In this document: positions 16,037 through 41,957 of the stretch, one piece after another
Layout of the letters: each line of letters starts with the position of its first letter
Numbering within the stretch: the first letter of the stretch is position 1
Source of the DNA: Candidatus Omnitrophota bacterium
GTDB taxonomy: Bacteria; Omnitrophota; Gorgyraeia; Zapsychrales; Fredricksoniimonadaceae
Direction of reading: 5' to 3'
Assembly: GCA_903944345.1 (NCBI GenBank)
Contig: CAJARJ010000019.1
Location: forward strand, 7,480 to 71,479
Length of the DNA stretch: 64,000 bases
Program-made: the position numbers and the translations under genes
The notes under the pieces: model-generated
Told to the model about the DNA's origin: nothing
Databases searched by the model: none
Seen by the model: the letters and a program-made list of their open reading frames with translations, nothing else

Positions 16037-16160
16037 AAAAAAATTGCTATAAACTATTGATTTTAAATAACTTTTATTCCTTATTGATCTTATTAAGGTT
16101 ACCTACTTATACAGATACTATTTATTTCTATTAATTAAGATTTAAAGAAGGAGAGAAAAA

Positions 16161-24789: not shown

Positions 24790-25701
24790 ATGGATCTTTT
24801 CGAAAACAAAAAGCAGTTGATCATGATTGCCGCCGCTGTTGTGATCGGCATTGTGGCTTCTGTCATGGTTGCTGGTTTTGTTTCGACGCGCATTAACGAG
24901 GAAACACAAATTTTGGCAGATCGATATCAACAGGCACAGAAGCAGAGAGAGCAGCAATATAACGAGCAAATGGCGGGAATGAATCAGAAAATTGCCGCAA
25001 TGGATCAAAATTACAAAAAAGCCATTGAGGAGTCCAGTCGGGCGGCCGACAAGCGACTGGCAGATGCTGTCGCAGCTGCTAAAGCCGCAGCTGCAGCTGA
25101 ATCAGCCAGAAAGGCGACCGAAGATGCTCAAAAGAATCCGCCCAAAAAGCCAAAACCTTCTCTGGCATTACGTACTCCTGCCGGGAAAAGGGCGATCACA
25201 TTAAAGATAGAGTCTATTGGCGCGGTTGGGGGGTTAATTAATCCGGGAGATTACGTTGACATTATTGCGCACTTGAATCTTCCCGCTGAGCCCGTTGCTG
25301 ACAAACAAAAAAAAGTTGTTACGGCCATGATTTTTCAGAGGGTGCAGATATTGGCTGTGAATACAAATCTTGATCAGATGGGGGAGTACGATGCTCAGCA
25401 GAAAGATGCTGCGCTGAAAATAACCTTTGCGGTTGACCCTCAGGAAGCTGGCCTTTTATCATTTGCAGAAAAGAACGGAAAATTGGAAATGGCTCTACGA
25501 GGCCCCAATGAAAGCAAGAGTGTGATGCTATCTAGTGCGACCTGGTCGACACTTGCCGAGTATGTTCTGGAAAATAGTGGCGCGGATTTGAAGATTCCCG
25601 ATTCAGAGTGGGGGGAAGAGGCACCTGTGGCTGAAGTGGAAACTGTTGACGTTGTTGAAGCTAAACCGTACATTCCGGTCTATCGGGGTGGAAAGGAGTA
25701 G
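24790..25701 (+). CDS. cpaB: Flp pilus assembly protein CpaB/RcpC-like (SAF domain) with an Ala/Lys-rich insert
   Basis: 303 aa; N-terminal TM (IMIAAAVVIGIVASVMVAGFV); SAF-like RAITLKIESIGAVGGLINPGDYVDIIA and QRVQILAVNT motifs; immediately upstream of the secretin. Confidence 0.72.
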   Translation: MDLFENKKQLIMIAAAVVIGIVASVMVAGFVSTRINEETQILADRYQQAQKQREQQYNEQMAGMNQKIAAMDQNYKKAIEESSRAADKRLADAVAAAKAAAAAESARKATEDAQKNPPKKPKPSLALRTPAGKRAITLKIESIGAVGGLINPGDYVDIIAHLNLPAEPVADKQKKVVTAMIFQRVQILAVNTNLDQMGEYDAQQKDAALKITFAVDPQEAGLLSFAEKNGKLEMALRGPNESKSVMLSSATWSTLAEYVLENSGADLKIPDSEWGEEAPVAEVETVDVVEAKPYIPVYRGGKE

Positions 25702-27396: not shown

Positions 27397-29571
27397 ATGG
27401 CAGCTAAAACGATAACAGTATTTAGTAATAAAGGCGGCGTCGGGAAGACATTTCTCTGCGTTAATAGTGCCTGTTCGCTGGCTTTGTCTGGTAAAAAAGT
27501 TCTTCTGATTGATCTGGATTTCCAGGCAGGACAGGATATGGCGCGCATGCTGAATCTTGTTCCGCGCAGCTCTATTGTTGAATCTTTTTCTCAGTTGGAG
27601 AATCAGGAAGATCCTGCGGTCATCAAGAAATTCGTCATGACTCACGCCATTGGCGTAGATTTTATTTCTGCAGTTTTAAGTTATCGGGAAATGGGGCAGA
27701 TTACTCCAGATAATATACGACCGTTTCTGAGAAAGGCTCAGCAGCTTTACGATTTCATCATTATTGATGTTGGAAAATCATTTACCGAAGTCCTGCTTTC
27801 AGTGTTGGACATGTCCAATCTTATTTTGCTTGCCGTTACTCCTGATATTTTAGCGGTATACCAGATCAAATGGGGCCTAGAGTTGTTGCAAAGCCAGCAT
27901 TTTCCGATGAAAATGATTAAAGCCGTTTTAAATCGTTCGGAAAGTCAAGGCGGAGTTGTGTGGCAGGAAGTTAAGGCGGCGTTAGGTTGCGATATTCTTG
28001 CCAGAATCCCATCAGACGGAAAAGTTGTCGGAAGTGCTCTTAATCGTGGAATTCCATGTGTGGTCGACAGTCCGCGGGCGCGTGTTTCTATGGCATTTTC
28101 GGATCTGGCAGAAATGCTGTGCAACGAAAACAATTATGTGCAGACCACGGAAGTCCTAAGGGTTCGCATAGTCGATGATAAAAAGCAGGATAATTTCTGG
28201 GAAAAGTTTGGTATTACGGAAAAAGCTTCCGGTTCACCAATAAAATATTCAAGCCAAAAAGATGAAGACGAAGGGGTTCGGCTTAAAAAAAGGATTCATG
28301 CAAAACTTGTTGATCGCATGAACCTCAAATCGATAACACCGGAAGCATTGGCAGACCCCGAGCAGGCGGCTAATATTAAGAAACAGGCTGAACGAATTAT
28401 TGTGGATCTCATCACTGAGGAGGCTGGAGCGATTGTTTCTTCTCATCAGGAAAGATCCAAGCTTGTTACCGAAATAGTTAATGAGGCGCTTGGGCTTGGT
28501 CCGTTGGAGGATTTGCTGGCAGATAATGCTATTACGGATATCATGGTTAATAACAAGGATGAGATCTATATTGAGAAATCCGGAAAAATTTTCCTGACCG
28601 GGCGAAAATTTATTTCAGATCAGCAGGTTCGCTCGACAATCGATCGCATTATTGCACCCTTAGGAAGGCGTATTGACGAATCTGTGCCAATGGTGGATGC
28701 TCGTTTGCCGGATGGATCGCGTGTCAATGCTATCATTCCTCCGCTTTCTTTGCGGGGCCCGATGATCACAATTCGTAAGTTTGCCCAGGATCGGTATACG
28801 GTAGAAGATCTTTTACAGCGTTTTCATAGCCTTTCGCGTCCGATGGCGGATTTTATTCAGGCCGCTGTTGTTAGCCGCAAGAATATGCTTGTGTCCGGCG
28901 GGACGGGTTCAGGAAAAACGACCCTCCTTAATATTATTTCAAATAATATTCCGGATGGTGAAAGAATTATTACACTGGAAGATGCGGCCGAGCTCAAGCT
29001 GATCAAGCCGCACTGGGCGCGCCTTGAGTCGAGGCCCCCGAACGTTGAGGGTAAAGGAGCGATTACGATAAGGGATCTTTTTATCAATACCCTGCGTATG
29101 CGGCCAGATCGAATTATTATTGGTGAGTGCCGTGGCCCGGAAGTTCTGGACATGCTACAGGCCATGAATACTGGCCACGATGGATCGCTAACAACCATCC
29201 ATGCGAATTCCACCAGAGATGCCGTAACCCGGCTCAATTCCCTCATTCTTTTAAGTGGAGTAGAGCTACCGTTACAAGCGGTTTATGACATGATTGCGTC
29301 GGCGTTGGATATTATTGTTCAAGTTGCCCGCTTATCGGATGGATCCCGTAAAATTATAGGGATTTCCGAATTAACCGGACGCATTGTGAACGGACTGCCT
29401 GAACTTAAAGATATTTTCGAATTTCGTCATACGGGAATAGATAAAGATGGCCGGGTGATGGGGGATTTTGTGCCAACAGGATATGTACCCGAGTGCTACG
29501 ATGATTTTGTTAAACGCGGGGTTGCTCTCTCTAAAGAAATATTTTCTATAGACCACGTTGTTTCCGCCTGA
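27397..29571 (+). CDS. tadA: Fused TadZ/CpaE-like (MinD/ParA ATPase domain) and TadA/CpaF secretion ATPase
   Basis: 724 aa. N-terminal ~250 aa has the deviant Walker A VFSNKGGVGKTFLCVNSACSLALSGKKVLLIDLD (MinD/ParA/CpaE). A K/E-rich linker follows. C-terminal ~450 aa is a CpaF/VirB11-family ATPase (Walker A LVSGGTGSGKTTLLN, IGECRGPE, His-box TIHANS). Confidence 0.85.
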   Translation: MAAKTITVFSNKGGVGKTFLCVNSACSLALSGKKVLLIDLDFQAGQDMARMLNLVPRSSIVESFSQLENQEDPAVIKKFVMTHAIGVDFISAVLSYREMGQITPDNIRPFLRKAQQLYDFIIIDVGKSFTEVLLSVLDMSNLILLAVTPDILAVYQIKWGLELLQSQHFPMKMIKAVLNRSESQGGVVWQEVKAALGCDILARIPSDGKVVGSALNRGIPCVVDSPRARVSMAFSDLAEMLCNENNYVQTTEVLRVRIVDDKKQDNFWEKFGITEKASGSPIKYSSQKDEDEGVRLKKRIHAKLVDRMNLKSITPEALADPEQAANIKKQAERIIVDLITEEAGAIVSSHQERSKLVTEIVNEALGLGPLEDLLADNAITDIMVNNKDEIYIEKSGKIFLTGRKFISDQQVRSTIDRIIAPLGRRIDESVPMVDARLPDGSRVNAIIPPLSLRGPMITIRKFAQDRYTVEDLLQRFHSLSRPMADFIQAAVVSRKNMLVSGGTGSGKTTLLNIISNNIPDGERIITLEDAAELKLIKPHWARLESRPPNVEGKGAITIRDLFINTLRMRPDRIIIGECRGPEVLDMLQAMNTGHDGSLTTIHANSTRDAVTRLNSLILLSGVELPLQAVYDMIASALDIIVQVARLSDGSRKIIGISELTGRIVNGLPELKDIFEFRHTGIDKDGRVMGDFVPTGYVPECYDDFVKRGVALSKEIFSIDHVVSA

Positions 29572-29574: not shown

Positions 29575-29916
29575 ATGACTGCATATAATATTTCTCGCCA
29601 GACTTTAATTGCAAAACAAGTGCGGTTCGCAGATAGCCCATGGGCGCGCATGAAGGGCTTATTGGGACGCGACTCCTTGAATTCTGATGAGGGATTACTT
29701 ATAACCTGTTGCAATTCAATTCACATGTTTTTTATGCGGTTTTCCATTGATGCTATTTTCTTAGACCGTAATAATAGTGTTGTTGGACTTGTTTGTGCAA
29801 TTCCGCCGTTTTCTTTAAGTCCTGTTTTCTGGAATGCTTCCAAGGTGCTGGAATTGTCAAGTGGCACCATAAAGTTATCAGGTACAGAACTTAACGACAA
29901 GATTGAAATTTCCTGA
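29575..29916 (+). CDS. DUF192 family protein
   Basis: 113 aa; conserved DUF192 core IHMFFMRFSIDAIFLD. Confidence 0.7.
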   Translation: MTAYNISRQTLIAKQVRFADSPWARMKGLLGRDSLNSDEGLLITCCNSIHMFFMRFSIDAIFLDRNNSVVGLVCAIPPFSLSPVFWNASKVLELSSGTIKLSGTELNDKIEIS

Positions 29917-30027: not shown

Positions 30028-31833
30028 ATGGGAGTAACTTACAAATTAAAATCAGAAGTGGTTGATTTTATAGTAGAGAGCAAGCGGAGTGTCCCCTCGC
30101 TAAGTTGCCGGAAGCTGGTTGATCTTGTTCGGCAGCGTTTCTCGATGGATGTTTCGAAATCTTCGATTAATGCAGTTCTTAAAGAGTCTGACTTGAGCAG
30201 CCCAGTTGGACGCCATCCCAAGGGGGTTCCGCTTAAGAATTTTTTTATTCCCAAAGAGAAAAAAGAAAGCTTATTGCAGCAGGTTCAGCCATTTCTTGTT
30301 CCGGAAACTGTTGAGGTTGAGCCGTTGATGGAATTAAGGGAGGATTTTATCCAGCAGTTACCCCCGGAATTACCGCAAGTTGCGCAAAGCGACCAGCCTT
30401 TGAGGCTGGCGCCGGATATCATGAAGCTTGGCTTAGTAGAAGATGTTGCGCCAGAAGACTTTATATTACCGGAAAAGCCTTCAAATTTGAGCGACCCGGA
30501 GCCGGAACAAATTTGGAACATTTCAGATAATTTGCTATTTGAAAAAGGCGGAGCAATTTTTTTTGCTGCCATGTGGTGGCAACGGGCAAGATCTCCGGTG
30601 ATTGGTCAGGCTGTATGGCGCAGTGGTATTTTTGATGGCGGGCGTTTTCTTGAGACTGACTTTATACAATGGCTGGAAGGTCTCTTTTTGTTTCAAGCGA
30701 TTTTCGAAAAAAAGCAAGAGGACTTCTCGCGCGAAGAAATGCGAACGCTTACGGCGCTTTTTGCACACAAACAAACCGATCTTCCTGTGCCCTTAATAAG
30801 GAAGGAAGCATCAGCCGAGGAAAACAGGCGGTTGGCTTGGGACATTGAATCGGCATTGGCAGAAGCTTTTAGCATGGTTAGTTGTTATGAGCTGATCACC
30901 AGATCGGGTCGCAAAGTGCTGATGAATGCTTTTTTAGCCGGTTTTTTGCAGAATTTGCAGGAGGCAGGAAATTCTAGTCTTCCATTATTTTTTGCAATTG
31001 AGCGGGTTGCAGACCGTTTGGTGAATAATATTGAGCCATTGACGCTGCTGTATGGCGCTGGTCAAGATCCTTTTTCGCCATTGTTTGCTGAATACTGGGA
31101 TTTATTGACCGGAGAAACGCAAGATCCGATAGATAGAGTACTGGTTCATATGGTGGATGGCCGGGTTTTCCCGATGTTTGAACGTTTGGCGGCGATCAGT
31201 CGTTCGGTTGTTTTAATTGGGCCGGATCGGGAACAGGTTCTATCGGGCATTGATTTCGGGATTATTGCTGATGGCACAGCGTTTCACTGTGCTTTTACAG
31301 AAAGGACAGCTTCTTATTGCAAAGGGCTTGCAACTATTGCTGGAAAGAAAATTTATGCTTTTTGGGTGAGAGGGCTAGATCAGTCAGAACAGAAAATAAT
31401 ATTGACCAATATTTCTGCCAGTGCTTGTACTGATAATGAGATTGTGGCCCTTTTGTTCAGGACTTATGCACAGCAGCCGGTAACGGATATTTCGCAAAAG
31501 CTTCATCCATTGGAAAATCGGCCATTTTTAGTGGAGAAGCAAGGGAATTTGACCACAATTTTTTATACTCTTTATGAGTATCTGCATCGGGAGCTTGTAG
31601 CCAGTGTATTTCCCGTTCTTAGTCAGCTGGCACTTGATGAATTCAGAAATAATGTTTACACCTTACCGGCGCATATTATTAATCAGCCGGGGGCCTTGCT
31701 GGTTCGACTGCAAGCTGAACCCGGACATCCTTTTTTTGATGCCTTGGTTGAGGCGGCCAGATGGATTAATGCCCAGGACATTCGCGATCAACAAGGGCGC
31801 AGGCTGTATCTTTCCGTAGCTTCTTCTAAATAA
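30028..31833 (+). CDS. Hypothetical 601-aa protein with an HTH-like N-terminus
   Basis: Long ORF with protein-like composition; N-terminal ~50 aa (VVDFIVESKRSVPSLSCRKLVDLVRQRFSMDVSKSSINAVLKE) resembles a DNA-binding HTH; remainder unrecognised. Preceded by the palindrome TGTCCACTCTGGACA (29984-29998). Confidence 0.55.
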   Translation: MGVTYKLKSEVVDFIVESKRSVPSLSCRKLVDLVRQRFSMDVSKSSINAVLKESDLSSPVGRHPKGVPLKNFFIPKEKKESLLQQVQPFLVPETVEVEPLMELREDFIQQLPPELPQVAQSDQPLRLAPDIMKLGLVEDVAPEDFILPEKPSNLSDPEPEQIWNISDNLLFEKGGAIFFAAMWWQRARSPVIGQAVWRSGIFDGGRFLETDFIQWLEGLFLFQAIFEKKQEDFSREEMRTLTALFAHKQTDLPVPLIRKEASAEENRRLAWDIESALAEAFSMVSCYELITRSGRKVLMNAFLAGFLQNLQEAGNSSLPLFFAIERVADRLVNNIEPLTLLYGAGQDPFSPLFAEYWDLLTGETQDPIDRVLVHMVDGRVFPMFERLAAISRSVVLIGPDREQVLSGIDFGIIADGTAFHCAFTERTASYCKGLATIAGKKIYAFWVRGLDQSEQKIILTNISASACTDNEIVALLFRTYAQQPVTDISQKLHPLENRPFLVEKQGNLTTIFYTLYEYLHRELVASVFPVLSQLALDEFRNNVYTLPAHIINQPGALLVRLQAEPGHPFFDALVEAARWINAQDIRDQQGRRLYLSVASSK

Positions 31834-31898
31834 AGCACGTTCAGTGGGTTGACGGGAAAAGCTGATATGCTATACTTCAAATGTCTTTAAGAGATAAG

Positions 31899-32111: not shown

Positions 32112-32264
32112 ATGAGATGGGTAACAAACCGCAATGCTCAAAATCTTATTGAATATACCCTTGTCGTTGCCGTTGTTTCGGCTGCAGTTGTGGCCATGAG
32201 CACCTACGTGTTTCGCGCTGTTCAGGCGGCACAGAAAGAAATTATAAGGGAAGCCCAGGAATAG
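32112..32264 (+). CDS. flp: Flp-family pilin (50 aa)
   Basis: MRWVTNRNAQNLIEYTLVVAVVSAAVVAMSTYVFRAVQAAQKEIIREAQE: short basic leader, then EY at the Flp processing position and a hydrophobic helix. Below the ORF-track length cutoff. Confidence 0.7.
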   Translation: MRWVTNRNAQNLIEYTLVVAVVSAAVVAMSTYVFRAVQAAQKEIIREAQE

Positions 32265-32296
32265 TTTGTTCTCATCCGGATTTTTAAGGAGGATGT

Positions 32297-32503
32297 ATGA
32301 AGTTAAGGAATAAAAGAGGTCAAGGAACACTCGAGTATGTGATCTTGGTCACAGCAGTAATCGTTGTAGTTATTTATTTTCTTATGGGAACAGGTCAGGG
32401 GTCATTCCAGAACACAATGAATGGTGCATTAAACGAGGCCACTGAAGGAATGTCCACGATGTCCGGTCGTTTTGATGCGGCGTTTGCTCCTCCGGCCCCT
32501 TGA
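32297..32503 (+). CDS. flp: Flp-family pilin
   Basis: MKLRNKRGQGTLEYVILVTAVIVVVIYFLMG...; RBS AAGGAGG upstream. Confidence 0.85.
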   Translation: MKLRNKRGQGTLEYVILVTAVIVVVIYFLMGTGQGSFQNTMNGALNEATEGMSTMSGRFDAAFAPPAP

Positions 32504-32554
32504 GGTTGTGAAGAGTTGACAGAAAGAACAGAATGGCTCAACTGGAGGTAAATC

Positions 32555-32947
32555 ATGTTAAAGGTGTTAAGAAATAAAAAGGCTCAGAATACGGCGGAAT
32601 ACGCCATTCTGATCGCTTTGGTTGTTGGCGCTGTGGTCGCCATGCAGTCTTACGTTCAGCGCGGACTGCAGGCTAGAACACGAGGAACTTCATTGTATAT
32701 GAGAGACGAGATCTCAAATGCGATGAAAGCGGCCGATGCCAGTATGGCCGCCAGTATCGGTAATACCGGGCAGTACAATCCGTATTATCTGGATCAGCAG
32801 TATGAAACGACTCGCGATAGTGAAGAGACTGCAACTGCGGCTCCTTCCAATATCGTGTTGACGGGAACGTCAAATAAGTCTCGTGCTGCCGCCGGATATG
32901 ATGCGACTCTATATAATGGGGATGTAGGCGCAACGGGTCAGGATTAA
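32555..32947 (+). CDS. flp: Flp-family pilin with extended C-terminal domain
   Basis: MLKVLRNKKAQNTAEYAILIALVVGAVVAMQSYVQRGL...; paralog of the gene at 33522. Confidence 0.85.
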   Translation: MLKVLRNKKAQNTAEYAILIALVVGAVVAMQSYVQRGLQARTRGTSLYMRDEISNAMKAADASMAASIGNTGQYNPYYLDQQYETTRDSEETATAAPSNIVLTGTSNKSRAAAGYDATLYNGDVGATGQD

Positions 32948-32976
32948 AAAGCAGGTATTAAACAGGAGAGAAAATA

Positions 32977-33303
32977 ATGAGTATAAGAACAAAAAACAAT
33001 AAGGGACAAACGACCCTGGAGTATATCATCCTGATCGTTATTATCATTGCCGCCCTGTTGACTATACAAGGGTATCTCAAACGCGGCATTCAGGGGCGTC
33101 TGCGCAGTTCAGCGGACGATATTGGTGAGCAGTATGAATCGACAGCCACTAATCATACAAGAACAACGCGAGTTGCCTCTGTTACCAATGAGCGAACGAC
33201 ACAGGCCGGGGAATTCACCGGGTTTATTGGCCAGGAAAACAAGACAGTTGACGAATCTTATAACACGGCTAATGCAGAAATTGTGTACATGCCGGCGCCC
33301 TAA
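32977..33303 (+). CDS. flp: Flp-family pilin with extended C-terminal domain
   Basis: MSIRTKNNKGQTTLEYIILIVIIIAALLTIQGYLKRGIQGRLRSSADDIGEQYE...; paralog of the genes at 33916 and 35058. Confidence 0.85.
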   Translation: MSIRTKNNKGQTTLEYIILIVIIIAALLTIQGYLKRGIQGRLRSSADDIGEQYESTATNHTRTTRVASVTNERTTQAGEFTGFIGQENKTVDESYNTANAEIVYMPAP

Positions 33304-33318
33304 TCAGGAGAGAAACGC

Positions 33319-33501
33319 ATGAAAACAAACAAAGGTCAAAGTACTCTTGAATATGTACTGTTAGTGACAGCAGTTCTGGTGGTCATTATAGGTTGGGTGG
33401 CAGGGCCGGCATCTCCTTTCAAGCAGGCGGTCAACAATACCTTGTATGACGCATCAAATCAAATTGAGTCCATGTCCCAGCGCATTATGGCGGGGAAATA
33501 G
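33319..33501 (+). CDS. flp: Flp-family pilin
   Basis: MKTNKGQSTLEYVLLVTAVLVVIIGWVAGP...; paralog of the gene at 32297. Confidence 0.85.
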   Translation: MKTNKGQSTLEYVLLVTAVLVVIIGWVAGPASPFKQAVNNTLYDASNQIESMSQRIMAGK

Positions 33502-33521
33502 TTGTATAACGAGGAGGATCT

Positions 33522-33887
33522 ATGTTAAAAAGAACTCGCGATCGCAAAGGCCAGAATACGGCGGAATACGCGATCCTGATTGCGCTGGTTGTTGGAGCGG
33601 TTATTGCGATGCAGACTTACGTGCAGCGCGCCTTGAACGGACGGGTTTTTGATACGACCAAATATATGGCCGATAAAACCGCAGAAGTTACAGGAAACGG
33701 GTATCAGTATGAGCCGTATTATACAAATTCGGATTATCAGGTGGATAAAAACACTGGAGAAATCCGTAATCAGTATAATGCCGAGATTGGGATGTATTCG
33801 ACAGCTGAAACATTAAGAGCTGGTAATGAGGTGTCGGATTTTAACCGAGATGGCCTTACGGATTACGGTGACGTAGTTGTTCCGTAA
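33522..33887 (+). CDS. flp: Flp-family pilin with extended C-terminal domain
   Basis: MLKRTRDRKGQNTAEYAILIALVVGAVIAMQTYVQRAL...; paralog of the gene at 32555. Confidence 0.85.
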   Translation: MLKRTRDRKGQNTAEYAILIALVVGAVIAMQTYVQRALNGRVFDTTKYMADKTAEVTGNGYQYEPYYTNSDYQVDKNTGEIRNQYNAEIGMYSTAETLRAGNEVSDFNRDGLTDYGDVVVP

Positions 33888-33915
33888 TTTAATGGAAATT
33901 ATCAGGAGGCATTGC

Positions 33916-34245
33916 ATGAGAATCAATCTAAAAGGAAAAAACGGGCAAACAACCCTTGAGTACGCGATTTTGGTTATGATTATTATTGGCGCTTTGTTGA
34001 CGATTCAGGCCTACATCAAGCGCGGTATTCAGGGGCGGGTCAAAAGTTCGGCGGATGATATCGGCGAGCAATACGATCCGGGTAACACAAATTATGTTAA
34101 GGTAACTAATTCGATATCCAATACCCGCCAGACGTTTAATTCCGGTATTTCACGTTCGGAGTTAACGGCGGCGGATACGGTGGATGTTTCGACCTTCCAG
34201 GAGATAAGTAATCTGGAGTCGGGTGGTTATTGGGGAACACCGTAA
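33916..34245 (+). CDS. flp: Flp-family pilin with extended C-terminal domain
   Basis: From the internal ATG with RBS AGGAGG 6 nt upstream: MRINLKGKNGQTTLEYAILVMIIIGALLTIQAYIKRGIQGRVKSSADDIGEQYD... The track start at 33877 is probably too long. Confidence 0.82.
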   Translation: MRINLKGKNGQTTLEYAILVMIIIGALLTIQAYIKRGIQGRVKSSADDIGEQYDPGNTNYVKVTNSISNTRQTFNSGISRSELTAADTVDVSTFQEISNLESGGYWGTP

Positions 34246-34275
34246 TACGGTTTGGCTTTAGAGCCTTCAGGCTTT

Positions 34276-34318
34276 AAACATCAATGCCGGTTCCGTGACG
34301 GAACCGGCATTGATGTTT
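34276..34318 (+). repeat. Perfect 20-bp inverted repeat with 3-nt loop (hairpin or attenuator) inside the pilin array
   Basis: AAACATCAATGCCGGTTCCG-tga-CGGAACCGGCATTGATGTTT. A smaller hairpin AGCC-ttca-GGCT lies at 34262-34273. Located 30 nt after the stop of the 33916 pilin gene. Confidence 0.8.
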
Positions 34319-34330
34319 AGAAAGAAAAAT

Positions 34331-34681
34331 ATGATTAAGATGTTTCACGGACAACGCGGTCAGAGTGTGGCAACAGAATATGTTGTCATTTTTTTTCTGG
34401 CGATTGCCGCGGTGGCTGCAATGGCCATGTATGTCCGGCGCGCGTTTCAGGGGCGGGTTTATGATGCGAGAATGTATACAATGCAGAAAGCTGCCCAGGC
34501 TTTGGGAGAGTCGGTTCCTTTTGAGTATGAGCCATATTATGCCCAGACGGATAGCAATCTGGCCAAAAGAGCGGATGAAATGACGAGCATTAGTGGTGCT
34601 GAGGTTGTTCTGCGGACGTCTTTCGAAGCTACCACCACGAATAGTCATAGCGTGCAAAGGCAACCGGACAGAGGAATTTAG
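34331..34681 (+). CDS. Flp-like pilin, divergent (start uncertain)
   Basis: MIKMFHGQRGQSVATEYVVIFFLAIAAVAAMAMYVRRAFQGRVYDA...; G-x4-EY motif plus hydrophobic helix. Upstream in-frame ATGs at 34295 and 34313 lie inside the hairpin. Confidence 0.7.
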   Translation: MIKMFHGQRGQSVATEYVVIFFLAIAAVAAMAMYVRRAFQGRVYDARMYTMQKAAQALGESVPFEYEPYYAQTDSNLAKRADEMTSISGAEVVLRTSFEATTTNSHSVQRQPDRGI

Positions 34682-34707
34682 TCGAAATTGCTGTCGGGGG
34701 AAGCGAG

Positions 34708-35061
34708 ATGTTAAAAAAGAAACGTGCCCAGTCACTGGCTGAATACTCGATGTTAACCAGTATTATTGTGGCGGCTATTGTGGTTGTTTATCCGCTGGTC
34801 AAGCGCGGGCACCAGAGTTTGATTAAAGTGGTGGCTGATCAGGTTGGAAGCCAGAGGGATGCTGAGCAGGACTTTTCGCGAGGCTCTTCTTATCTGGCCT
34901 GTTCGGAAACTCGATATAACAGCCGCATTGGTGATGTAGTTCAGGAGGATGGGTACATAGACGGATCGGGAACTGCGCATTTTGCTTATATCCGAACTTA
35001 TGACCAGTCAACCAACAGTTCGAGTATTGAGATTACAAACATGGAGCATGATACGCAATGA
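34708..35061 (+). CDS. Flp-like pilin, divergent
   Basis: MLKKKRAQSLAEYSMLTSIIVAAIVVVYPLVKRGHQ... Confidence 0.72.
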   Translation: MLKKKRAQSLAEYSMLTSIIVAAIVVVYPLVKRGHQSLIKVVADQVGSQRDAEQDFSRGSSYLACSETRYNSRIGDVVQEDGYIDGSGTAHFAYIRTYDQSTNSSSIEITNMEHDTQ

Positions 35062-35390
35062 TCAGGCGCACAAATCAAGACGGACAGACAATTCTTGAGT
35101 ATTCGATCATCATGATTATTGTGATAGCTACTCTTATCACTATGCAGGGCTATATCAAGCGCGGCTTTCAGGGACGCTGGAAATCGGCAGTGGACGATCT
35201 TGGGGAGCAGTATGACCCCCGCGCGGTTTGCAGTACGATTGTTTATTCACAGTCCTCTAATTCAGTTGCCAGTGTTCGCGTGATGGATCATACATCCCAG
35301 AGTGGAATATCGGGCAAGTATACTATACGCAACGATCAGGTGCAGTCTTCAGAGACTAAAACCGGGACAACGGAAGTTCGCCGTCCCTAG
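35058..35390 (+). CDS. flp: Flp-family pilin with extended C-terminal domain
   Basis: MIRRTNQDGQTILEYSIIMIIVIATLITMQGYIKRGFQGRWKSAVDDLGEQYDP...; third member of the KGQTTLEY..KRGIQGR subfamily; ATGA overlap with the preceding gene. Confidence 0.85.
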   Translation: MIRRTNQDGQTILEYSIIMIIVIATLITMQGYIKRGFQGRWKSAVDDLGEQYDPRAVCSTIVYSQSSNSVASVRVMDHTSQSGISGKYTIRNDQVQSSETKTGTTEVRRP

Positions 35391-35402: not shown

Positions 35403-36659
35403 ATGGGGGATGTTCGTAAAAGTTCAGACTGGCGCAAGGCTCAGGCGACCATTGAAATAGCAGCTTTTGGGGCTATTGTTATTTTTATTATTGGATTGAT
35501 TGTTCAGCAAGGATACAGTTCTACCCAACAGCAGAATATACAGCTACAGGCGCTAAGGATAGCGTTGCTAAAGTCTTATGAGAGTTCGCTGCAGGGCAGT
35601 TCGGCCCGTAATTCGGGGAGTTTTATGCTGATTGAGGATCGGCTTTCTCCGGCGGTGGGGAAATATGGCCCGCTGGATCGGCAGGTTTTTATGTCGAGTG
35701 GATCCGGTGTTATGAGCTATTTGTTGTTTCGTCCGATTGATTGGGAAGATTTGCCCAGAGACCTTCCGCTAACGGATGTTAGCGTTAACGGGCAGGATTT
35801 TGTTTTCAGAACAGCTGCTGCCGTCAAGTATACGATTAATCCAGGCTCAATTGTTGCCAATGATAGCATCACCATGCAATCGGGATCTGATCCTGATGCG
35901 GCCAGATTAAGCGAGGAAGGACTATGGGCCTGGCAGAGCATCGTCAAGTATAGCGAAGATTGGACCGGAAGTGCGGACTGTTCCAATATGCGCCGGAATG
36001 CAGCTAAAGAGAAGCCCTGTTCGGCTGCTGTGCAGGACAAGATTCCTTGGAAATGGAAAAAGGTTTCCTGGGGAGAGGCGGCTTCCGAGATTAATCTGGA
36101 TGACGGGGTTTACCCGAGTTACGATATTGATGGCGACCGTAGCGAAGAAACTCTTTACAAGATGAGCGGCAATACGGTATGGGTGATTGATTGGAACGCA
36201 GGTGATGTTGACAACAGTGCGGATGAATGGGAGTTTGCGGACGAAGAAGATATCCCCGGACTCAAAGACACAATGGAAATTGTCTCCATGCCGCTTTATC
36301 CCGGTGATCGTAACACATTGGAGATCAGGGAAAACGGAGCTTCCAGCCGAGCGACCAGCCTCAGCAGTAAAAGCCAGATGGATATTATTACCCGCAAGTT
36401 TGTGATGAATCCGCGCATGATCGGAGGAGGGACGCTTTGCTCAGGCGGCACACCTACCCAAGGATCAGTCGAAGCCTGCTGTCAGGGAGAGGGGTGTTGC
36501 TCTTCAGCTGACAATGCTTATAAAACCTGTTTTCAGTATGTTGACGGTTATGGCAGGAAGGTTCTTTATATTCGTAGCCGCATTCAAGATGAACGAAAGA
36601 GCGGATGGACGACTCCGGTGGTTCCGGCGGATATTGGAGATCGGACGATTTTCAAGTAA
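35403..36659 (+). CDS. TadE-like pseudopilin with a large Cys-containing C-terminal domain
   Basis: 418 aa; N-terminus KAQATIEIAAFGAIVIFIIGLIV resembles the TadE/TadF pseudopilin motif; 8 Cys including the cluster EACCQGEGCC. Confidence 0.65.
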   Translation: MGDVRKSSDWRKAQATIEIAAFGAIVIFIIGLIVQQGYSSTQQQNIQLQALRIALLKSYESSLQGSSARNSGSFMLIEDRLSPAVGKYGPLDRQVFMSSGSGVMSYLLFRPIDWEDLPRDLPLTDVSVNGQDFVFRTAAAVKYTINPGSIVANDSITMQSGSDPDAARLSEEGLWAWQSIVKYSEDWTGSADCSNMRRNAAKEKPCSAAVQDKIPWKWKKVSWGEAASEINLDDGVYPSYDIDGDRSEETLYKMSGNTVWVIDWNAGDVDNSADEWEFADEEDIPGLKDTMEIVSMPLYPGDRNTLEIRENGASSRATSLSSKSQMDIITRKFVMNPRMIGGGTLCSGGTPTQGSVEACCQGEGCCSSADNAYKTCFQYVDGYGRKVLYIRSRIQDERKSGWTTPVVPADIGDRTIFK

Positions 36660-36682
36660 GAGGTTCGTAAAGGGGAGCGGTT

Positions 36683-36925
36683 ATGCTGGATCATATTCCG
36701 AAATCAAACCATTCGTGCGTCGGGCAGAGCACTGTGGAGTTCTGTTTCGGACTTTTTATTGTGTTGTTGCTTTTTTTTGCCCTGGTTCAGGCTGTACGGT
36801 GGGTGGTTCTGGAGAAGATCGAGTTGCGAGTTGATTTTGAACGTTCCTTGCAGACAGGCAGTGGAGCGTATCAGCAGCTGAATCCGCACTTTCATCGATT
36901 GCGGCCTTTGGACATGGAATATTAG
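36683..36925 (+). CDS. TadE-like pseudopilin (80 aa)
   Basis: GQSTVEFCFGLFIVLLLFFALVQ TadE-type N-terminal motif. Confidence 0.65.
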   Translation: MLDHIPKSNHSCVGQSTVEFCFGLFIVLLLFFALVQAVRWVVLEKIELRVDFERSLQTGSGAYQQLNPHFHRLRPLDMEY

Positions 36926-36944
36926 CGGCGGCATTTAACCCCGG

Positions 36945-39773
36945 GTGGTTTGTTTTATGAAAAAAATAATGATGGATAACAGGGGGCAGATGGCGCTGTT
37001 GATGGTTTTGGTTGCTGCCATAGCGCTGGTGTGCCTGGCCATGACTCTGAATCTCACCCGGGTGGCGGCCACAAAAACGTTGACCATGATTGCAGCCCAT
37101 CAGGCATCTTCTTACACAGCTTCGCAAATGGCCAGCTATGCTCAGATGCAGAAAGAAACACAACTCGGAGGAAAGCAGAAAGTTTGTAAGAACACAGGAC
37201 TGCTGTCTTCTTTGTTGACATTTATTATTGTTCTGGTGATTGCGGTGATTGTGACGGTAGCTTCATATGGAACTGCGGGTCCTTCGATGTGGACTGTTGT
37301 TGCTGCGTGGGCAGCTGTAGCTATTTCGGCGGCCTCGGTGGTGTTGCAGGCTACGGTTATTCAGCCCGGATTGACCAAAATGTGGAATAAATTGCAGATG
37401 ACGATAGCAACGACGGAGGATCGTTTTCTGGAGATGGGACTGCAGGTGGCGCTTTCCGGAGCGGTGAGCGATAGTGAGCAAATTCCGGATTATTATGATT
37501 ATAATATGAACGGGGTGATATGGGATGGAGATATAAATTCTGATGAGCAGGATCAGATTTCCCGATTTTCTTATTACTACACGAAACATTTGCTGGATGC
37601 TTCGGCGGAATATGCTTCTTCAGGTGGCGTGGCCGGCATTAATCAGATGAAAACCATTTTAGGGGAGATTCGGGAGTCCTTTGGCCTTGAGATTGATCAT
37701 GGTTGTTGTGCAGACAAGGGGTATCACCCCGCTTTATGTAATCCATGTTGTGTCAGCAAGGAGTTGCGTCCGGGGTCCTGTCACCCGGAGATAGCTGATC
37801 CTGAGCTTTTTCCGGATGTCCCCTCCGAATGTATGGCTGGGGTCATGCCCTACTATCCGTTGAATTACGATCCTCTTTTTTGTAAGCGTATCCCTGATTC
37901 TTCCGTACCTGAGAGTGATCCCAAAAATAATACCATGGCTGCGGTGATGGGGATGGATGATGGAAATATGTCCATGACCAGGGTCTTTCCTAATCAGGCG
38001 TACTCAAGAGAAGCTTTGGACTCGATCAGAAACATGTTTCGTGGTGAGGATAGTGACGGCAAGCTGTTTCCGTTGTTATGGATGAATGCCGACGGCGCTC
38101 CTGAAACGTATAATCTTCGGGCCTCCGATATTACGGAGGCGTCGGCTAATTGTCATTGGTGTTCGGCGGATGGAGGGTTACCCAAGTGTGACAATGCGGG
38201 CAGTAATTATCATTATTGGAGAAATCCGTACACTGGGGCGGCTTTTACCCAGTTGGATCTGGGGGATCCGGTTTGTTCCGGGGACGGTTGCTGCGTTAAC
38301 AGACTTGTTCAGACAAGCGGTTCTTTACATGGCTTGCAAATGGACAAGGTTCAGGGTCTGGAAAGTGTCAGGAATTTCTCCGGACATGAAAGTTTTTTTG
38401 AAGAAGATCCTCCGGATGCAGATTGTCCCGGTAGTAGTGGTTTATGGCGCAAAGGATCAGACTTGTACTGTTCTTCGACCATTCCCTACTATGCCAATTG
38501 TTCCAAAGTTCAGGGCATGAGTTGTCAGGAAGAATATTCCGAAGATTCATGTGAGTGCAGTGAGTCCTTGAGGAAGGATATCTGGCGGGATGATGATCTG
38601 GATGATTTTACCGTCTGGCTGCGACAGGCGGCCACTTTAATTGATAGGTTTATGCAAACCAGCAGTCCGGCCTTGTTTGCCCAGATTGACGATTATTACG
38701 AAGACTTCACCAAACTTGTTGAAGAGTTGAGAGCCAAAAGAGGGCTCATGGAAGGTTGGCGGACGGGCTTTCAGCAGTGGCTGGATCGCACCGATTTCGC
38801 CGAAGGTGGTTTATGGTGCCTTCCAAATGATCCGAACACCTTGGCTATAGATGAGCGTGCCGCAGTGCTGGCTGCAGGACCATATGGTAGTGTTCAGTCT
38901 GTTGTTGCCTGCCTGGATTATAATAAAGATAATGCGGTTAAGCTGCAAACGTGTATTGACAATTCACAGACTTGTGCCAGCGGCCCGCGTCGCCTGGGTC
39001 CGGCCGGAGACCTGGAGTCGAACCAGAAGGCCGCCGTGAATGCCGATATCAAATTCCGCAAACGCTGGGAGTATTTAAGCGGGATTTATAATTTATCGGT
39101 CAGAGTACGCGACAGCCTGACCAGGGCTATTGATACGGTCGATGAATCCAGGTTGAACTCCTTGCTGTCCGCGCTGGAGAGTGTCAAGACGTCCTATGGA
39201 GCAGTCACGGGCAACAATTTTCTTATTTACGGCTGGAAAAGCGGGCAGGGAAAAGGCGGAAAATTGTGGCATGTGGTCAAGGCGGACTTATGGTTACCCA
39301 AGCGTTGTGATGGATTTGACTGTCGGGCTACACGTTTCCCATGGGTAAAAACTTATAAAAAGGGTTCTTTCAAGCGCTGTTACGAGTTATTTTCATATAA
39401 TGGTTGTGTGAAAACACTGGTTAAACGTTATGACGCTTCACCCAGAAGTCTTTATAATGAAAATGCCCAGTTTGGCAGTGGTTTGGCTGTATGGTTTCCT
39501 CGTAACAACAAAAACACAGGAAGCGCGACTATCAACGACGGACTGGATGAGTGTAATCAGGTTGAGTCAGGAGTGCCTTCAGGGGCTTTTATTCTTAGCA
39601 CACAGACCATGAGTTCAGCCCCAGCGGCTTGTCAGAATGCTCTGGCGGGAGCCCTCAGTTCTGCTACAACAGGAAGTGAGCTTTGTGCTGCTTATGAAAT
39701 GGTTGGCAGCGGTTATCAGGTAAGATTTCTGGACTGTAATCAGTGTGGCAGTGTAGATCCACATAATGACTAG
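36945..39773 (+). CDS. TadG-like large pseudopilin / putative pilus tip protein, cysteine-rich (942 aa, ~36 Cys)
   Basis: N-terminus NRGQMALLMVLVAAIALVCLAMTLNLTRVAATKTLTMIAAHQAS matches the TadG N-terminal pattern; remainder is rich in Cys clusters (GCCADKGYHPALCNPCC, CECSES, CNQCG). Confidence 0.7.
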   Translation: MVCFMKKIMMDNRGQMALLMVLVAAIALVCLAMTLNLTRVAATKTLTMIAAHQASSYTASQMASYAQMQKETQLGGKQKVCKNTGLLSSLLTFIIVLVIAVIVTVASYGTAGPSMWTVVAAWAAVAISAASVVLQATVIQPGLTKMWNKLQMTIATTEDRFLEMGLQVALSGAVSDSEQIPDYYDYNMNGVIWDGDINSDEQDQISRFSYYYTKHLLDASAEYASSGGVAGINQMKTILGEIRESFGLEIDHGCCADKGYHPALCNPCCVSKELRPGSCHPEIADPELFPDVPSECMAGVMPYYPLNYDPLFCKRIPDSSVPESDPKNNTMAAVMGMDDGNMSMTRVFPNQAYSREALDSIRNMFRGEDSDGKLFPLLWMNADGAPETYNLRASDITEASANCHWCSADGGLPKCDNAGSNYHYWRNPYTGAAFTQLDLGDPVCSGDGCCVNRLVQTSGSLHGLQMDKVQGLESVRNFSGHESFFEEDPPDADCPGSSGLWRKGSDLYCSSTIPYYANCSKVQGMSCQEEYSEDSCECSESLRKDIWRDDDLDDFTVWLRQAATLIDRFMQTSSPALFAQIDDYYEDFTKLVEELRAKRGLMEGWRTGFQQWLDRTDFAEGGLWCLPNDPNTLAIDERAAVLAAGPYGSVQSVVACLDYNKDNAVKLQTCIDNSQTCASGPRRLGPAGDLESNQKAAVNADIKFRKRWEYLSGIYNLSVRVRDSLTRAIDTVDESRLNSLLSALESVKTSYGAVTGNNFLIYGWKSGQGKGGKLWHVVKADLWLPKRCDGFDCRATRFPWVKTYKKGSFKRCYELFSYNGCVKTLVKRYDASPRSLYNENAQFGSGLAVWFPRNNKNTGSATINDGLDECNQVESGVPSGAFILSTQTMSSAPAACQNALAGALSSATTGSELCAAYEMVGSGYQVRFLDCNQCGSVDPHND

Positions 39774-39793
39774 TCTGAGAGAGGCGGTTTAAA

Positions 39794-40168
39794 TTGTTTA
39801 ACAGACGCGCCTATTCGGTTCTGGAATATCTTGTCATTTTTGTTGTTGTTATTGCCGCTTTGCTGGTTTTGGGGTCGTATATTCATAGTGCCATGCAGGG
39901 GCAATTTCGCACTGCGGGGGCGACAATGGCTGATCTTCGCCAGCATGAAACATCAAGTCAGGACTGCGCCTATGACGATCAGCTTGGGATATGGTATTCT
40001 GTTGCTTGTGTTGATAACGGCTGGGGCACGAATTGCCGTTATGCGGGTGTTGATAATGTCAATATGCGCGCGGAGTGTCGCAGCAACCCCTGTAATGGGC
40101 AATGTCCATTCTCCTGTTGTCAGGAAAATGTGAAACGTAGTTGTGCGATGCCTTGTGCTCCTTCCTGA
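39794..40168 (+). CDS. Pilin-like protein with a Cys-rich C-terminal module (14 Cys in 124 aa)
   Basis: SVLEYLVIFVVVIAALLVLGSYIHSAMQGQF pilin-like N-terminus, then CAYDD...CVDNGWGTNCRYAG...CRSNPCNGQCPFSCCQENVKRSCAMPCAPS. Confidence 0.7.
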   Translation: MFNRRAYSVLEYLVIFVVVIAALLVLGSYIHSAMQGQFRTAGATMADLRQHETSSQDCAYDDQLGIWYSVACVDNGWGTNCRYAGVDNVNMRAECRSNPCNGQCPFSCCQENVKRSCAMPCAPS

Positions 40169-40219: not shown

Positions 40220-41065
40220 ATGTTAGCGGTCAGTCTGTTTCTGTTTTTTCTTAGCGTGATGATATCTGTTTATTACGTGATTCCTTTTGTTGTTAGAAGG
40301 ATTATTGAGGTCAACAAGAATCGCGCACGCAATTTTGCCCGGGACATGGATCGAACCATGTTAACCCAGGACATTCAAAAAGTTCGGGTTCTTTTTATTA
40401 TCGGACCTTTTGTTTGTGGAGCCGCCGGTTTTTTTCTGGGTGGAGTGATTGGTGTTCTGGTTGGATCAGCGGTCGGTTTTGTGATCCCCAGAACGTATGC
40501 GTCTATCTTGCAGGGTCAGAGACGGGAACAGTTTGAAAAACAACTGGTGGATGCCCTTATGATCATGTCCAGTTCGTTTCGGGGCGGCTTGAGTCTGGTT
40601 CAGTCTATGGAATCGGTAGTTGATGAAATGCCCGATCCTATCCGCCAGGAATTCGGGCTCGTTCTGGGCGAGAACAAGATTGGAGTTCTTTTGGATGACG
40701 CTTTCAATCGACTTTATAAACGTTTGCCGTCACCGCCATTACAGCAAATGATTAGTGCTATTTTGCTGGCACGCGAGACGGGCGGAAATCTGCCGGCTAT
40801 CTTTTCGCGAATTGTGAGCACTATACGTGAACGTCGAAAGATCGAGGATAATCTTAAAGTTCTGACTTTGCAGGGTAAGCTGCAGGCTTTTGTGATGAGC
40901 GGCTTGCCGGTAGGGTTCTTTTTTCTGGTCAATACAACCAATCCCAATTATTTTAAGATCATGACCAATACCGATACGGGGCGCATGCTGTTGGCGGTTT
41001 GTGCGTTTTTATGGGTTCTTGGAACTTTCATGATCATAAAGATCAGTACTATCAAGGAGGTCTGA
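40220..41065 (+). CDS. tadB: Tad pilus inner-membrane platform protein TadB (GspF-like)
   Basis: 281 aa; T2SS-F domain (LYKRLPSPPLQQMISAILLARETGGNLPAIFSRIVSTIRERRKIEDNLKVLTLQGKLQAFVMSGLP). Confidence 0.85.
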   Translation: MLAVSLFLFFLSVMISVYYVIPFVVRRIIEVNKNRARNFARDMDRTMLTQDIQKVRVLFIIGPFVCGAAGFFLGGVIGVLVGSAVGFVIPRTYASILQGQRREQFEKQLVDALMIMSSSFRGGLSLVQSMESVVDEMPDPIRQEFGLVLGENKIGVLLDDAFNRLYKRLPSPPLQQMISAILLARETGGNLPAIFSRIVSTIRERRKIEDNLKVLTLQGKLQAFVMSGLPVGFFFLVNTTNPNYFKIMTNTDTGRMLLAVCAFLWVLGTFMIIKISTIKEV

Positions 41066-41066: not shown

Positions 41067-41957
41067 GTGCTTCTTCTGAGTTTGATTCTAATCACACTGT
41101 CGGTAACCATTTTGATTTGTGCCTTTCTTCCTGGTTTAAGCGAGTTCCGGCCACAGCCCAAGATCCAGAATTTTGGACAAATGCCGGATTTCTTTGGAAA
41201 GAAAAAGAAACAGGAAGGCAATGACTTTATAAAAGGTTTGGCGCTCTTTAATCGCCCCCTGATTGGCGGCGAGATGCGTTTGCGGCTGGTGAGGGACTTG
41301 TCTATCGCCCAGTTGAATATGACTCCGGAAGAGTTTATGCTGATTAAAGAAATCATGATAGTTGTATTACTTGTTTTTGTTCCCGGTTTCTTTCCGGGAG
41401 ACATGCTTATCTTTGCTGTTTTAATGTCGGTTGCCTTTGGGTATTTCGCTCCGGAGTTCTGGCTTAAAGGAAAGATCAAGAAGGTCAAAGAGGATTTCGT
41501 GCGTTATTTGCCGGACACGGTTGATCTTTTGGGTTTATGCGTTAATGCAGGGCTGGATTTCATGATGGCGCTTAAATGGGTTTCGGAGAAGTCTTCGCCT
41601 AATGTAGTGGTCAATGAAATGAACAGCTTGTTGCAGGAAATTAGTGTTGGTAAGCCCAGGCGGGAGGCGTTACGTGATGCTGCGCGCAAGTACGAATTGG
41701 CGGATCTTTCTACGTTTTCGCGGACATTGATCCAAGCGGATAAAATGGGGACATCGGTGTCTGAAGCGCTCAATATTCTTTCTGAGGATATGCGTCAGGC
41801 GCGCTATCGTCGCGGAGAAGCCATGGCTCTTAAGGCCCCCATCAAGCTTTTGGTTCCGTTGCTTTTCTGTATCTTTCCGGTAGTCGGGATTCTGGTTGGA
41901 GGACCGATTTTTCTTGATTTTATGACCAATAACCCTATGAAAAAGATGGGGATGTAA
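41067..41957 (+). CDS. tadC: Tad pilus inner-membrane platform protein TadC (GspF-like)
   Basis: 296 aa; T2SS-F domain (YLPDTVDLLGLCVNAGLDFMMALKWV...LSTFSRTLIQADKMGTSVSEALNILSEDMRQARYRRGEAMALKAPIKLLVPLLFCIFPVV). Confidence 0.85.
   Translation: MLLLSLILITLSVTILICAFLPGLSEFRPQPKIQNFGQMPDFFGKKKKQEGNDFIKGLALFNRPLIGGEMRLRLVRDLSIAQLNMTPEEFMLIKEIMIVVLLVFVPGFFPGDMLIFAVLMSVAFGYFAPEFWLKGKIKKVKEDFVRYLPDTVDLLGLCVNAGLDFMMALKWVSEKSSPNVVVNEMNSLLQEISVGKPRREALRDAARKYELADLSTFSRTLIQADKMGTSVSEALNILSEDMRQARYRRGEAMALKAPIKLLVPLLFCIFPVVGILVGGPIFLDFMTNNPMKKMGM

Follow-up and report, generated by a model that had tools for sequence, protein, structure and literature searches.

Which proteins of an Omnitrophota pilus would touch another cell is the question raised by a cluster of cysteine-rich genes in one genome of this phylum. 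Omnitrophota are abundant, uncultured, ultra-small bacteria that are thought to be predators or parasites, and their Tad (tight adherence) pilus is the main candidate for host attachment. The genes lie in a 64,000-nucleotide stretch, here referred to as the window, from a Candidatus Omnitrophota bacterium (assembly GCA_903944345.1, contig CAJARJ010000019.1, positions 7,480 to 71,479 of the forward strand); coordinates below count from its first letter. An earlier note on this DNA described three cysteine-rich pseudopilins at 35403-40168 and proposed that they are tip or adhesin subunits. We find four adjacent genes, encoding A418, B80, C938, and D124, and the evidence leans, by a modest amount, toward these proteins being the minor-pilin set, or tip-priming complex, of the Omnitrophota Tad (type IVc) pilus, with C938 as the part that would meet the host or prey. 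A tip or adhesin role, as the note had it, is the best reading of the evidence.

The locus itself was known before. It was reported as the Omnitrophota Tad complex, expressed in V. archaeovorus in coculture with its host (PMC10066038), and it was called "type II secretion-like" in a study in which it generally precedes the giant genes of Omnitrophota (West-Roberts et al., 10.1101/2023.11.21.568195). The locus of West-Roberts 2023 and Seymour 2023 is the same as the one analyzed here: it has the gspD/E/F-like genes, rcpC, the Rotamase_2 peptidyl-prolyl isomerase (PPIase), many small class III-signal genes, and the giant C39-bearing gene downstream. In the searched text of both papers, nothing is said of the A, B, C, and D proteins, of their cysteines, or of a role at the tip, and "cysteine," "TadG," and "pseudopilin" do not occur as words; the cysteine-rich proteins likewise go unmentioned in a 2026 preprint on Omnitrophota genomes.

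Four prepilin-like genes inside a Tad operon

The four loci are real open reading frames (ORFs) inside one tightly packed Tad operon, all on the + strand and separated from one another and from the tadB gene that follows by 20 to 51 nucleotides (nt). A418 (35403-36659; 418 amino acids [aa]) is a TadE/F-type, prepilin-like protein with an ectodomain of about 380 aa that holds 8 cysteines. B80 (36683-36925; 80 aa), a small TadE-like minor pilin, stands between A418 and C938 (36957-39773; 938 aa from an ATG, 35 cysteines), the large and putatively TadG-like subunit. D124 (39794-40168; 124 aa, TTG start) is a Flp-type prepilin with a cysteine-rich tail, and its 10 cysteines all fall within the last 67 residues. 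The ORF originally listed for the large protein starts from a GTG at 36945 and encodes 942 aa with 36 cysteines; because its orthologues start with M..(K/R)GQ, the ATG at 36957 is the more likely start. The earlier note gave its three ORFs (35403, 418 aa; 36945, 942 aa; 39794, 124 aa) with exact coordinates, counted 8 cysteines in A418 and 36 in the 942-aa frame correctly, and quoted motifs that are all present (EACCQGEGCC, GCCADKGYHPALCNPCC, SCECSES, CNQCG, and CRSNPCNGQCPFSCCQENVKRSCAMPCAPS). Its 14 cysteines for D124 are actually 10, and its three-gene set is one of four genes, B80 having been overlooked.

We compared cysteine content with that of the 22 other proteins of the window, excluding the giant ORF described below, in which 0.82% of residues are cysteines. 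C938 (3.7%; P = 3.6e-13) and D124 (8.1%; P = 9e-8) are strongly enriched, whereas A418 (1.9%; P = 0.02) is a marginal case.

All four proteins have prepilin-like N termini, in which a basic leader ends with G or A at −1, position +1 is mostly Q, and a hydrophobic helix some 20 residues long follows. With a slash between positions −1 and +1, the sequences read ..RKA/QATIE in A418, ..VG/QSTVEF in B80, ..RG/Q in C938, and ..RRA/YSVLEY in D124, and a transmembrane (TM)-like helix follows directly in each; in A418, this single N-terminal helix spans residues 16-34. The leader pattern is kept in orthologues. Position −1 is G or A in each of the 14 pilin-like proteins encoded at the locus, and position +1 is Q in all except D124. 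Glu occupies +5 (Glu5) in A418 (QATIE), B80 (QSTVE), D124 (YSVLE), and their orthologues; C938 is without it. No Pfam or NCBIfam model matched A418, C938, or D124, and scans of A, B, C, D, 52 orthologues, and the largest family members with both databases returned no adhesin, EGF, vWA, knottin, or metal-cluster domain. The TadE/TadG or Flp-type N-terminal helices proposed earlier can be kept as prepilin-like N termini, with no Pfam match for A, C, and D and no Glu5 in C938.

The A-B-C-D gene order recurs in ten further loci (L001 to L010), which were found using a nine-sequence alignment, and tadB and tadC come next in each, even though protein identity is only 25 to 40%. Orthologues of A have 418 to 796 aa and 6 to 32 cysteines, those of B have 75 to 117 aa and 0 to 2 cysteines, those of C have 913 to 1265 aa and 35 to 50 cysteines, and those of D have 105 to 135 aa and 6 to 10 cysteines. 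The flanking pilin paralogues are without cysteine in every related locus, and the ten pilin paralogues of the window together have 2 cysteines in 986 residues. The named homologues all come from Candidatus Omnitrophica or Omnitrophota metagenome-assembled genomes, with the one exception of contig L007, which is labeled "uncultured Planctomycetales."

The three smaller proteins have conserved features of their own. In the A orthologues, which occupy the same position in the 10 other loci, four C-terminal cysteines are conserved (C346, C359, C366, and C376 of the window protein), as are the N terminus (G/A)QAxTELAxFGA with Glu at +5 and a strand, FIRSRIxDxxG, near the C-terminal cysteines. The number of cysteines in the mature protein is even in 11 of 11 A orthologues, and 14 members of the family gave no Pfam match. 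The B orthologues are always placed between A and C and have the classical TadE-type N terminus QSTIEFTF; B80 itself scores E = 5.7e-4 and 20.4 bits against Pfam TadE (PF07811), below the 22.9-bit cutoff. D orthologues were taken by locus position, and a word-index search gave only near-identical copies of D124. Eight of them have 6 to 10 mature cysteines, even in number in all eight, with about 5 to 6 positions conserved, and an insertion in the D124 of the window adds four. D124 and its orthologues have the motif RGxxGRWK..G..QYDP in common with a neighboring pilin, p110. In an alignment that pools 10 B orthologues and 8 D orthologues (A7), Pfam TadE matched three members and Pfam Flp1_like gave a weak match in two.

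The C938 family

C938 belongs to a large family. A word-index search found 19 relatives, and a profile search of 1.84 billion cluster representatives returned at least 813 at E values up to 1e-3 and 398 at E values up to 1e-30; 140 newly returned representatives have 721 to 1733 aa and a median of 46 cysteines. The family, its largest members included, has no Pfam or NCBIfam match, and PDB sequences, searched with a profile, yielded nothing beyond a chance match (E = 0.043). In a 160-sequence alignment, cysteine ranks first in conservation among all residues, its mean column identity being 0.73 (0.50 for tryptophan and 0.10 to 0.45 for all others), and 25 cysteines are conserved in at least 77% of the sequences. 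The cysteine positions are thus conserved among homologs, a point on which the earlier note had made its proposal depend.

The cysteines also behave as pairs. In 125 of 148 full-length members (P = 4e-18), those that follow the N-terminal hydrophobic helix (alpha-1N) add up to an even number, and if C77, which lies just before a hydrophobic helical hairpin, is omitted, the number becomes odd in 130 of the 148. C77 and C808, although 731 residues apart, co-occur perfectly, being present together in 134 members and absent together in 14, and they have been lost jointly in at least five separate lineages. Other partly conserved cysteines of the family also come and go pairwise. Even parity together with pairwise gain and loss argues for structural disulfides outside the cytoplasm, and the pairing of C77 with C808 means that residue 77 shares a noncytoplasmic side of the membrane with the C-terminal domain. 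These patterns indicate an ectodomain that is extracytoplasmic and disulfide bonded. A cytoplasmic location of the proteins, which the earlier note had named as the outcome to look out for, was rejected on the disulfide evidence and on topology, with the N terminus in and the ectodomain outside. As for the disulfide-knotted extracellular modules of that note, the conserved, disulfide-like cysteines bear the idea out, and the suggested EGF, knottin, or vWA domains and folds were not recovered with Pfam, NCBIfam, or Foldseek.

C938 is not a simple pseudopilin, as it has three hydrophobic helices and no Glu5. G10 and Q11 are invariant or nearly so in the family, and at +5 all 152 sequences scored have I, V, L, M, or A, with Glu in none. 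Three hydrophobic segments occur within the first 260 residues in 109 of 160 members. The two that form the hairpin are essentially uncharged, with neither Lys nor Arg in 113 of 157 members, and hence no charged loop would need to cross the membrane if the protein were extracted from it. Farther along, after a conserved C..LPRSL (query position 686), lies a variable insert of 0 to 524 aa (median, 134) that is 6.6% cysteine.

An AlphaFold2 model of C938 had a pLDDT (predicted local distance difference test) of 66 with a 20-sequence alignment; a 71-row alignment raised this to 82, with a predicted TM-score (pTM) of 0.73, and the latter model was used. In it, a single long alpha-1 helix of 63 residues (8-70) leads to a short strand that holds C77 (75-79) and then to the hydrophobic hairpin (82-102 and 113-132), which is the sole low-confidence part. 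A helical bundle (136-242) and a cysteine-rich region that is mostly coil (243-545) follow, then two helices of about 60 residues (547-609 and 686-749) and a C-terminal beta-sheet domain (755-925), in which the strand at 806-812 holds C808. The model suggests that C938 may be a pilin-like core, made of alpha-1 and the beta-sheet and tethered by C77-C808, around a very large insertion. The fold is confidently predicted but has no known homologue: Foldseek searches with the model recovered no relative, the best matches being at E = 0.26 in the PDB (query-normalized TM-score below 0.1) and E = 0.14 in BFVD.

A relationship to TadG is suggested by profile comparison of the N terminus. The C N-terminal profile (A5) aligned by hhalign with an annotated TadG-related protein of Burkholderia at P = 3.5e-4 (probability, 37%), over 48 columns that start nine residues upstream of the PF13400 domain (residues 20-67) and stay in register through the first 39 positions; a Moraxella TadG-like protein gave P = 0.043. 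The earlier description of the 942-aa protein as TadG-like is thus suggested, not proved, by hhalign, and membership in the family is not demonstrable with Pfam.

The operon and its neighborhood

The Tad genes of the window form a single co-directional operon in the order SurA-like PPIase, CpaB/RcpC, secretin-TonB_C, TadZ-TadA, DUF192, a 601-aa protein, ten pilins, A418, B80, C938, D124, TadB, and TadC. By Pfam, these are a SurA-like PPIase (Rotamase_2) at 23813-24775; CpaB/RcpC at 24790-25701 (+); a secretin fused to a C-terminal TonB_C domain at 25705-27378 (+); a TadZ (ParA/MinD-like) protein fused to the TadA/CpaF ATPase at 27397-29571 (+); DUF192 at 29575-29916 (+); and, at the end of the operon, TadB at 40220-41065 (+; T2SSF, E = 2e-16) and TadC at 41067-41957 (+; T2SSF, E = 2e-15). 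The secretin-TonB_C and TadZ-TadA fusions, both unusual, are kept in related loci, and the order CpaB, secretin-TonB_C, TadZ-TadA, DUF192 is the same in L001, L002, and the contig that bears P0004. A hairpin and then a T-run lie directly 3′ of tadC. A promoter-like site at 31849-31876 precedes the first Flp gene; the promoter and terminator scan was otherwise uninformative.

The 601-aa protein (30028-31833, +) has no hydrophobic segment and no Pfam or NCBIfam match, and related loci that cover this position have it too, after DUF192 and before the pilin genes. Its conserved N terminus, MGVxYKL..SCRxL..SKSSVN, resembles a helix-turn-helix, and the protein could serve this Tad variant as a regulator or as an assembly factor in the cytoplasm. 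The ten Flp/class III-signal pilin paralogues after it (32112-35390, +), with weak Pfam Class_IIIsignal matches, comprise three small ones (50, 68, and 60 aa), which are probably fibre subunits or adapters, and seven of 108 to 130 aa. Two pilin genes (32555 and 32977) and the 60-aa Flp gene at 33319 appear to have undergone a tandem duplication that gave 33522 and 33877 (32555-34245). The numbers of midsize and small paralogues are seven and three in the window and five and two in L001, L002, and the P0004 contig, and they vary in other loci. L008 (10577-13537) and L009 (10777-13722) carry an additional protein of about 981 aa with 45 to 64 cysteines between the C and D orthologues; the L009 copy starts with a signal-peptide-like hydrophobic N terminus, and one copy matches the Ig-like domain Big_7. 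This protein may be a further tip-associated or secreted factor.

Directly downstream of the Tad operon, a giant ORF (42444-64000, +) runs beyond the window end and encodes more than 7,185 aa, with an N-terminal hydrophobic segment, a Peptidase_C39 domain at aa 205-286, and, in sharp contrast to the tip proteins, only 0.11% cysteine. It matches the "Archaeovorin"-type giant genes of Omnitrophota. The hairpin and T-run after tadC suggest that this gene is a separate transcription unit. On the P0004 contig, the operon is likewise paired with a giant protein (7,270 aa); in L001, the operon is followed by a C39-domain gene that runs into the contig end and encodes at least 599 aa; and in L002, an identical operon is followed by nuo genes, not by a giant gene. 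An unrelated Tad locus on a Moraxella bovis plasmid (L012; NZ_CP087831.1, 14947-20854) has a DUF192 gene beside a TadE-family gene and then a gene for an RHS-repeat toxin. The arrangement points to DUF192 as an accessory that recurs in Tad systems and to a repeated link between Tad loci and genes for large effectors.

The window takes in a chromosomal origin region, ahead of the Tad operon, with parAB, yidC, dnaA, dnaN, gyrB, gyrA, and a switch in GC skew near 16 kb. Positions 10000-17000 are AT rich (35 to 36% GC, compared with about 46 to 52% elsewhere), coincide with the sign change in GC skew and with yidC, dnaA, and dnaN, and are probably the region of the replication origin. A 6S RNA gene (415-568, −) adjoins pheT, genes for tRNA-Val, tRNA-Leu, and tRNA-Cys cluster at 6658-7028 (−), and a tRNA-Glu gene (22553-22629, +) lies between gyrA and mdh. 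An ORF listed at 6848-7492 lies partly over the tRNA cluster and is probably not a real gene.

Candidate roles and known pilus systems

We infer the following course of assembly. The four prepilins would be anchored with the N terminus in at the inner membrane, their ectodomains would fold in the periplasm and be locked by disulfides, and a prepilin peptidase encoded elsewhere would cleave after the G or A. Type IV filaments grow from tip to base, so A418, B80, C938, and D124 would assemble first, as a priming or tip complex. Such filaments are primed by a minor-pilin complex that is capped by a subunit without Glu5 (PMC10191384), and since capping subunits lack this residue, C938 fits a tip cap. 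C938, which is both the largest protein of the set and the only one without Glu5, would cap the tip, and A418 and B80 (TadE/F-like) and D124 (Flp-like) may use their alpha-1 helices to dock below it, linking it to the small Flp subunits. The complex would then prime polymerization of the small Flp proteins and pass the secretin. The uncharged hairpin could be extracted along with alpha-1N and buried in the filament core, which is feasible in principle. The surface presented to the host or prey would be the disulfide-stabilized C scaffold, carrying in most relatives the hypervariable cysteine-rich insert. If so, the four proteins are probable tip proteins and thus targets for host-range prediction, for antibodies or labeling in enrichment cultures, and for structural work.

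In a bolder version of the same course, members of the C938 family would be type IV pilins with an alpha-beta loop grown to about 680 residues, and they would place three uncharged hydrophobic helices (alpha-1N plus the hairpin) in the filament. A lone subunit might then mimic a three-helix layer and nucleate a three-start Tad fibre, or the hairpin might insert into the host or prey membrane, the tip piercing or anchoring alongside the giant "archaeovorin," or both. We consider this version a long shot. Either way, the family raises the mechanistic question of how an assembly machine handles a pilin-like subunit with three hydrophobic helices.

A number of observations weigh against placing the set at the tip. 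To our knowledge, there is no precedent for the extraction from a membrane of a subunit with three hydrophobic helices, such as C938 has. PF13400 (Tad) matched none of 20 C members scanned, even at E values up to 1, and NCBIfam gave no match either; Pfam TadE and Tad stayed below threshold for A, C, and D; and hhalign of the A family with two annotated TadE proteins was not significant (P = 0.13 to 0.16). The 64-kb window has no prepilin peptidase (Peptidase_A24) gene among its ORFs. At the hypervariable insertion site, the C938 of the window has 20 aa and is among the smallest members, and close relatives of C938 (91 to 100% identity) have no obviously clustered substitutions that would hint at diversifying selection. 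TadG, moreover, is listed by a recent review in the cytoplasmic-membrane subcomplex and not among the pilins (PMC10191384, Table 1).

Several of these points would be expected if C938, and perhaps A418, were stationary inner-membrane parts of the Tad machine, with three TM helices and a periplasmic disulfide-bonded domain that aligns or gates the pilus between platform, CpaB, and secretin; only B80 and D124 would then be true minor pilins. We regard this as unlikely, although it deserves more weight than any other alternative. The published placement of TadG, the three hydrophobic segments in 109 of 160 members, the conserved scaffold, and the close-strain substitutions that are not obviously clustered all suit it; the model is confident except in the hairpin, in keeping with a segment embedded in lipid; and no recognizable TadD, RcpB, or PilMNOP-like genes were found at the locus, so that a structural role is left unfilled. 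A stationary protein would, however, not need the invariant G-Q at the prepilin cleavage position that is common to nearly all pilins of the locus, the universal lack of Glu5 matches tip-capping subunits, and the hairpin turn is without positive charge in most members, unlike a cytoplasmic loop. The hypervariable cysteine-rich insert is better suited to an exposed surface, and KilN of the Kil system of Myxococcus xanthus, which is homologous by position, has been modeled at the tip of the pilus and, by genetic evidence, is needed for contact with prey.

The giant gene behind the operon invites a different view, in which A418, B80, C938, and D124 are the short pseudopilus tip, analogous to GspK-I-J, of an apparatus that is mainly a type II secretion-like piston; the tip would recognize the giant protein or other cargo and push it through the secretin, and would not be adhesive. 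GspK, the largest pseudopilin of type II secretion, is also without Glu5. The pairing of operon and giant gene, with its N-terminal C39 peptidase domain, is repeated on the P0004 contig and in the C39-domain gene of L001, and the locus generally precedes giant genes in Omnitrophota (10.1101/2023.11.21.568195). Yet nuo genes follow the identical operon of L002, and the linkage is thus not obligatory. The ATPase, CpaB, the platform proteins, and the Flp-type pilins all belong to the Tad class, and the presence of ten pilin paralogues points to a real fibre. The giant gene, which lies beyond a terminator-like hairpin, looks like a unit of its own, and the giant proteins have been proposed to use SecA-like domains of their own (10.1101/2023.11.21.568195). 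On this evidence, we find a piston doubtful. More improbable still, and the least credible to us, is the view that the conserved cysteines bind metal or redox cofactors (Zn or Fe-S) or are redox-active thiols with a role in electron transfer or sensing. CxxC, CC, and CxC spacings do occur, and Dsb genes were not seen in the 64-kb window. Many Omnitrophota also inhabit anoxic environments, in which the formation of disulfides is less obvious. Such ligands accord poorly with the even parity and pairwise gain and loss of the cysteines, including C77 and C808, or with their spread across about 850 residues of the extracytoplasmic domain, and Fe-S, cytochrome, or zinc-finger Pfam matches were absent from more than 40 family members scanned.

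A minor-pilin set at the tip, our preferred reading, can be compared with three known systems. Like the proteins of canonical tad loci (PF07811 and PF13400; for example, the Burkholderia pyrrocinia plasmid locus L011), those described here are encoded inside a tad operon and have a basic leader, G or A, and a hydrophobic helix, with Glu5 present in the TadE/F-like members and absent from the TadG-like one. Canonical TadE, TadF, and TadG also have even, nonzero numbers of cysteines. The TadG/TadE/TadE set of Burkholderia has 8, 4, and 4, from which it follows that Tad minor pilins are not generally cysteine poor. That they are normally small and cysteine poor, as the earlier note assumed, is contradicted by this set and by the Kil proteins considered below. 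A418 and C938 are two to three times larger than canonical Tad proteins (418 and 938 aa compared with 147 to 425 aa), and C938 differs from canonical TadG in its 35 cysteines, its two extra hydrophobic helices, and the absence of a vWA-type domain. The A, B, C, and D genes also come before tadB and tadC, whereas the canonical genes come after tadD.

The GspK-GspI-GspJ complex of the type II secretion system and PilHIJK of the type IVa pilus are priming minor-pilin tip complexes, each capped by its largest member, which has no Glu5 (PMC10191384). That large member, like C938 as we read its model, is a pilin core with a big inserted domain. C938 has no fold match to these proteins, is encoded with Tad/type IVc machinery, and bears a far heavier disulfide load, and the hairpin is unique to its family.

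The closest likeness is to the Kil system. The TadE/F/G-like proteins KilL, KilM, and KilN of M. xanthus form pilus tips that prime the pilus, act in prey recognition and killing, and are needed for predation (Herrou et al. 2025, PMC12075869). Many disulfides are predicted in these tips. KilN, the large subunit, combines two long helices with a beta-scaffold and lacks a homologue in the PDB, and the short Flp proteins KilK and KilO act as adapters (PMC12075869). In both cases, a TadE/F/G-type minor-pilin gene cluster belongs to the Tad system of a bacterium that attacks other cells and encodes one short, one extended, and one very large subunit, the last with long helices, a beta-scaffold, and no PDB homologue. 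Disulfides are numerous in both, predicted in Kil and here deduced from conservation, parity, and co-loss, and both include an extra short Flp-type protein, a possible adapter. In its gene content, and in the secondary-structure layout of C938, the set agrees with what was published on Kil tips, a likeness at the level of description. There are differences as well. Four genes stand here in place of three, with a single tip set per locus instead of four interchangeable ones, and no T3SS* partner was seen at this locus, unlike in Kil. C938 departs from KilN in its added uncharged hydrophobic hairpin and in having no Glu5, and D124 has a cysteine-knotted tail where KilK and KilO are all helical. 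The idea of disulfide-rich TadE/F/G-type tips in cell-attacking bacteria was published in 2025, and the locus itself was known already. What is new is a large, unannotated, Omnitrophota-specific family with three hydrophobic helices, a C77-C808 tether, and a hypervariable cysteine-rich insertion site, a family that would extend the concept of an adaptable Tad tip from Myxococcus to a distant phylum.

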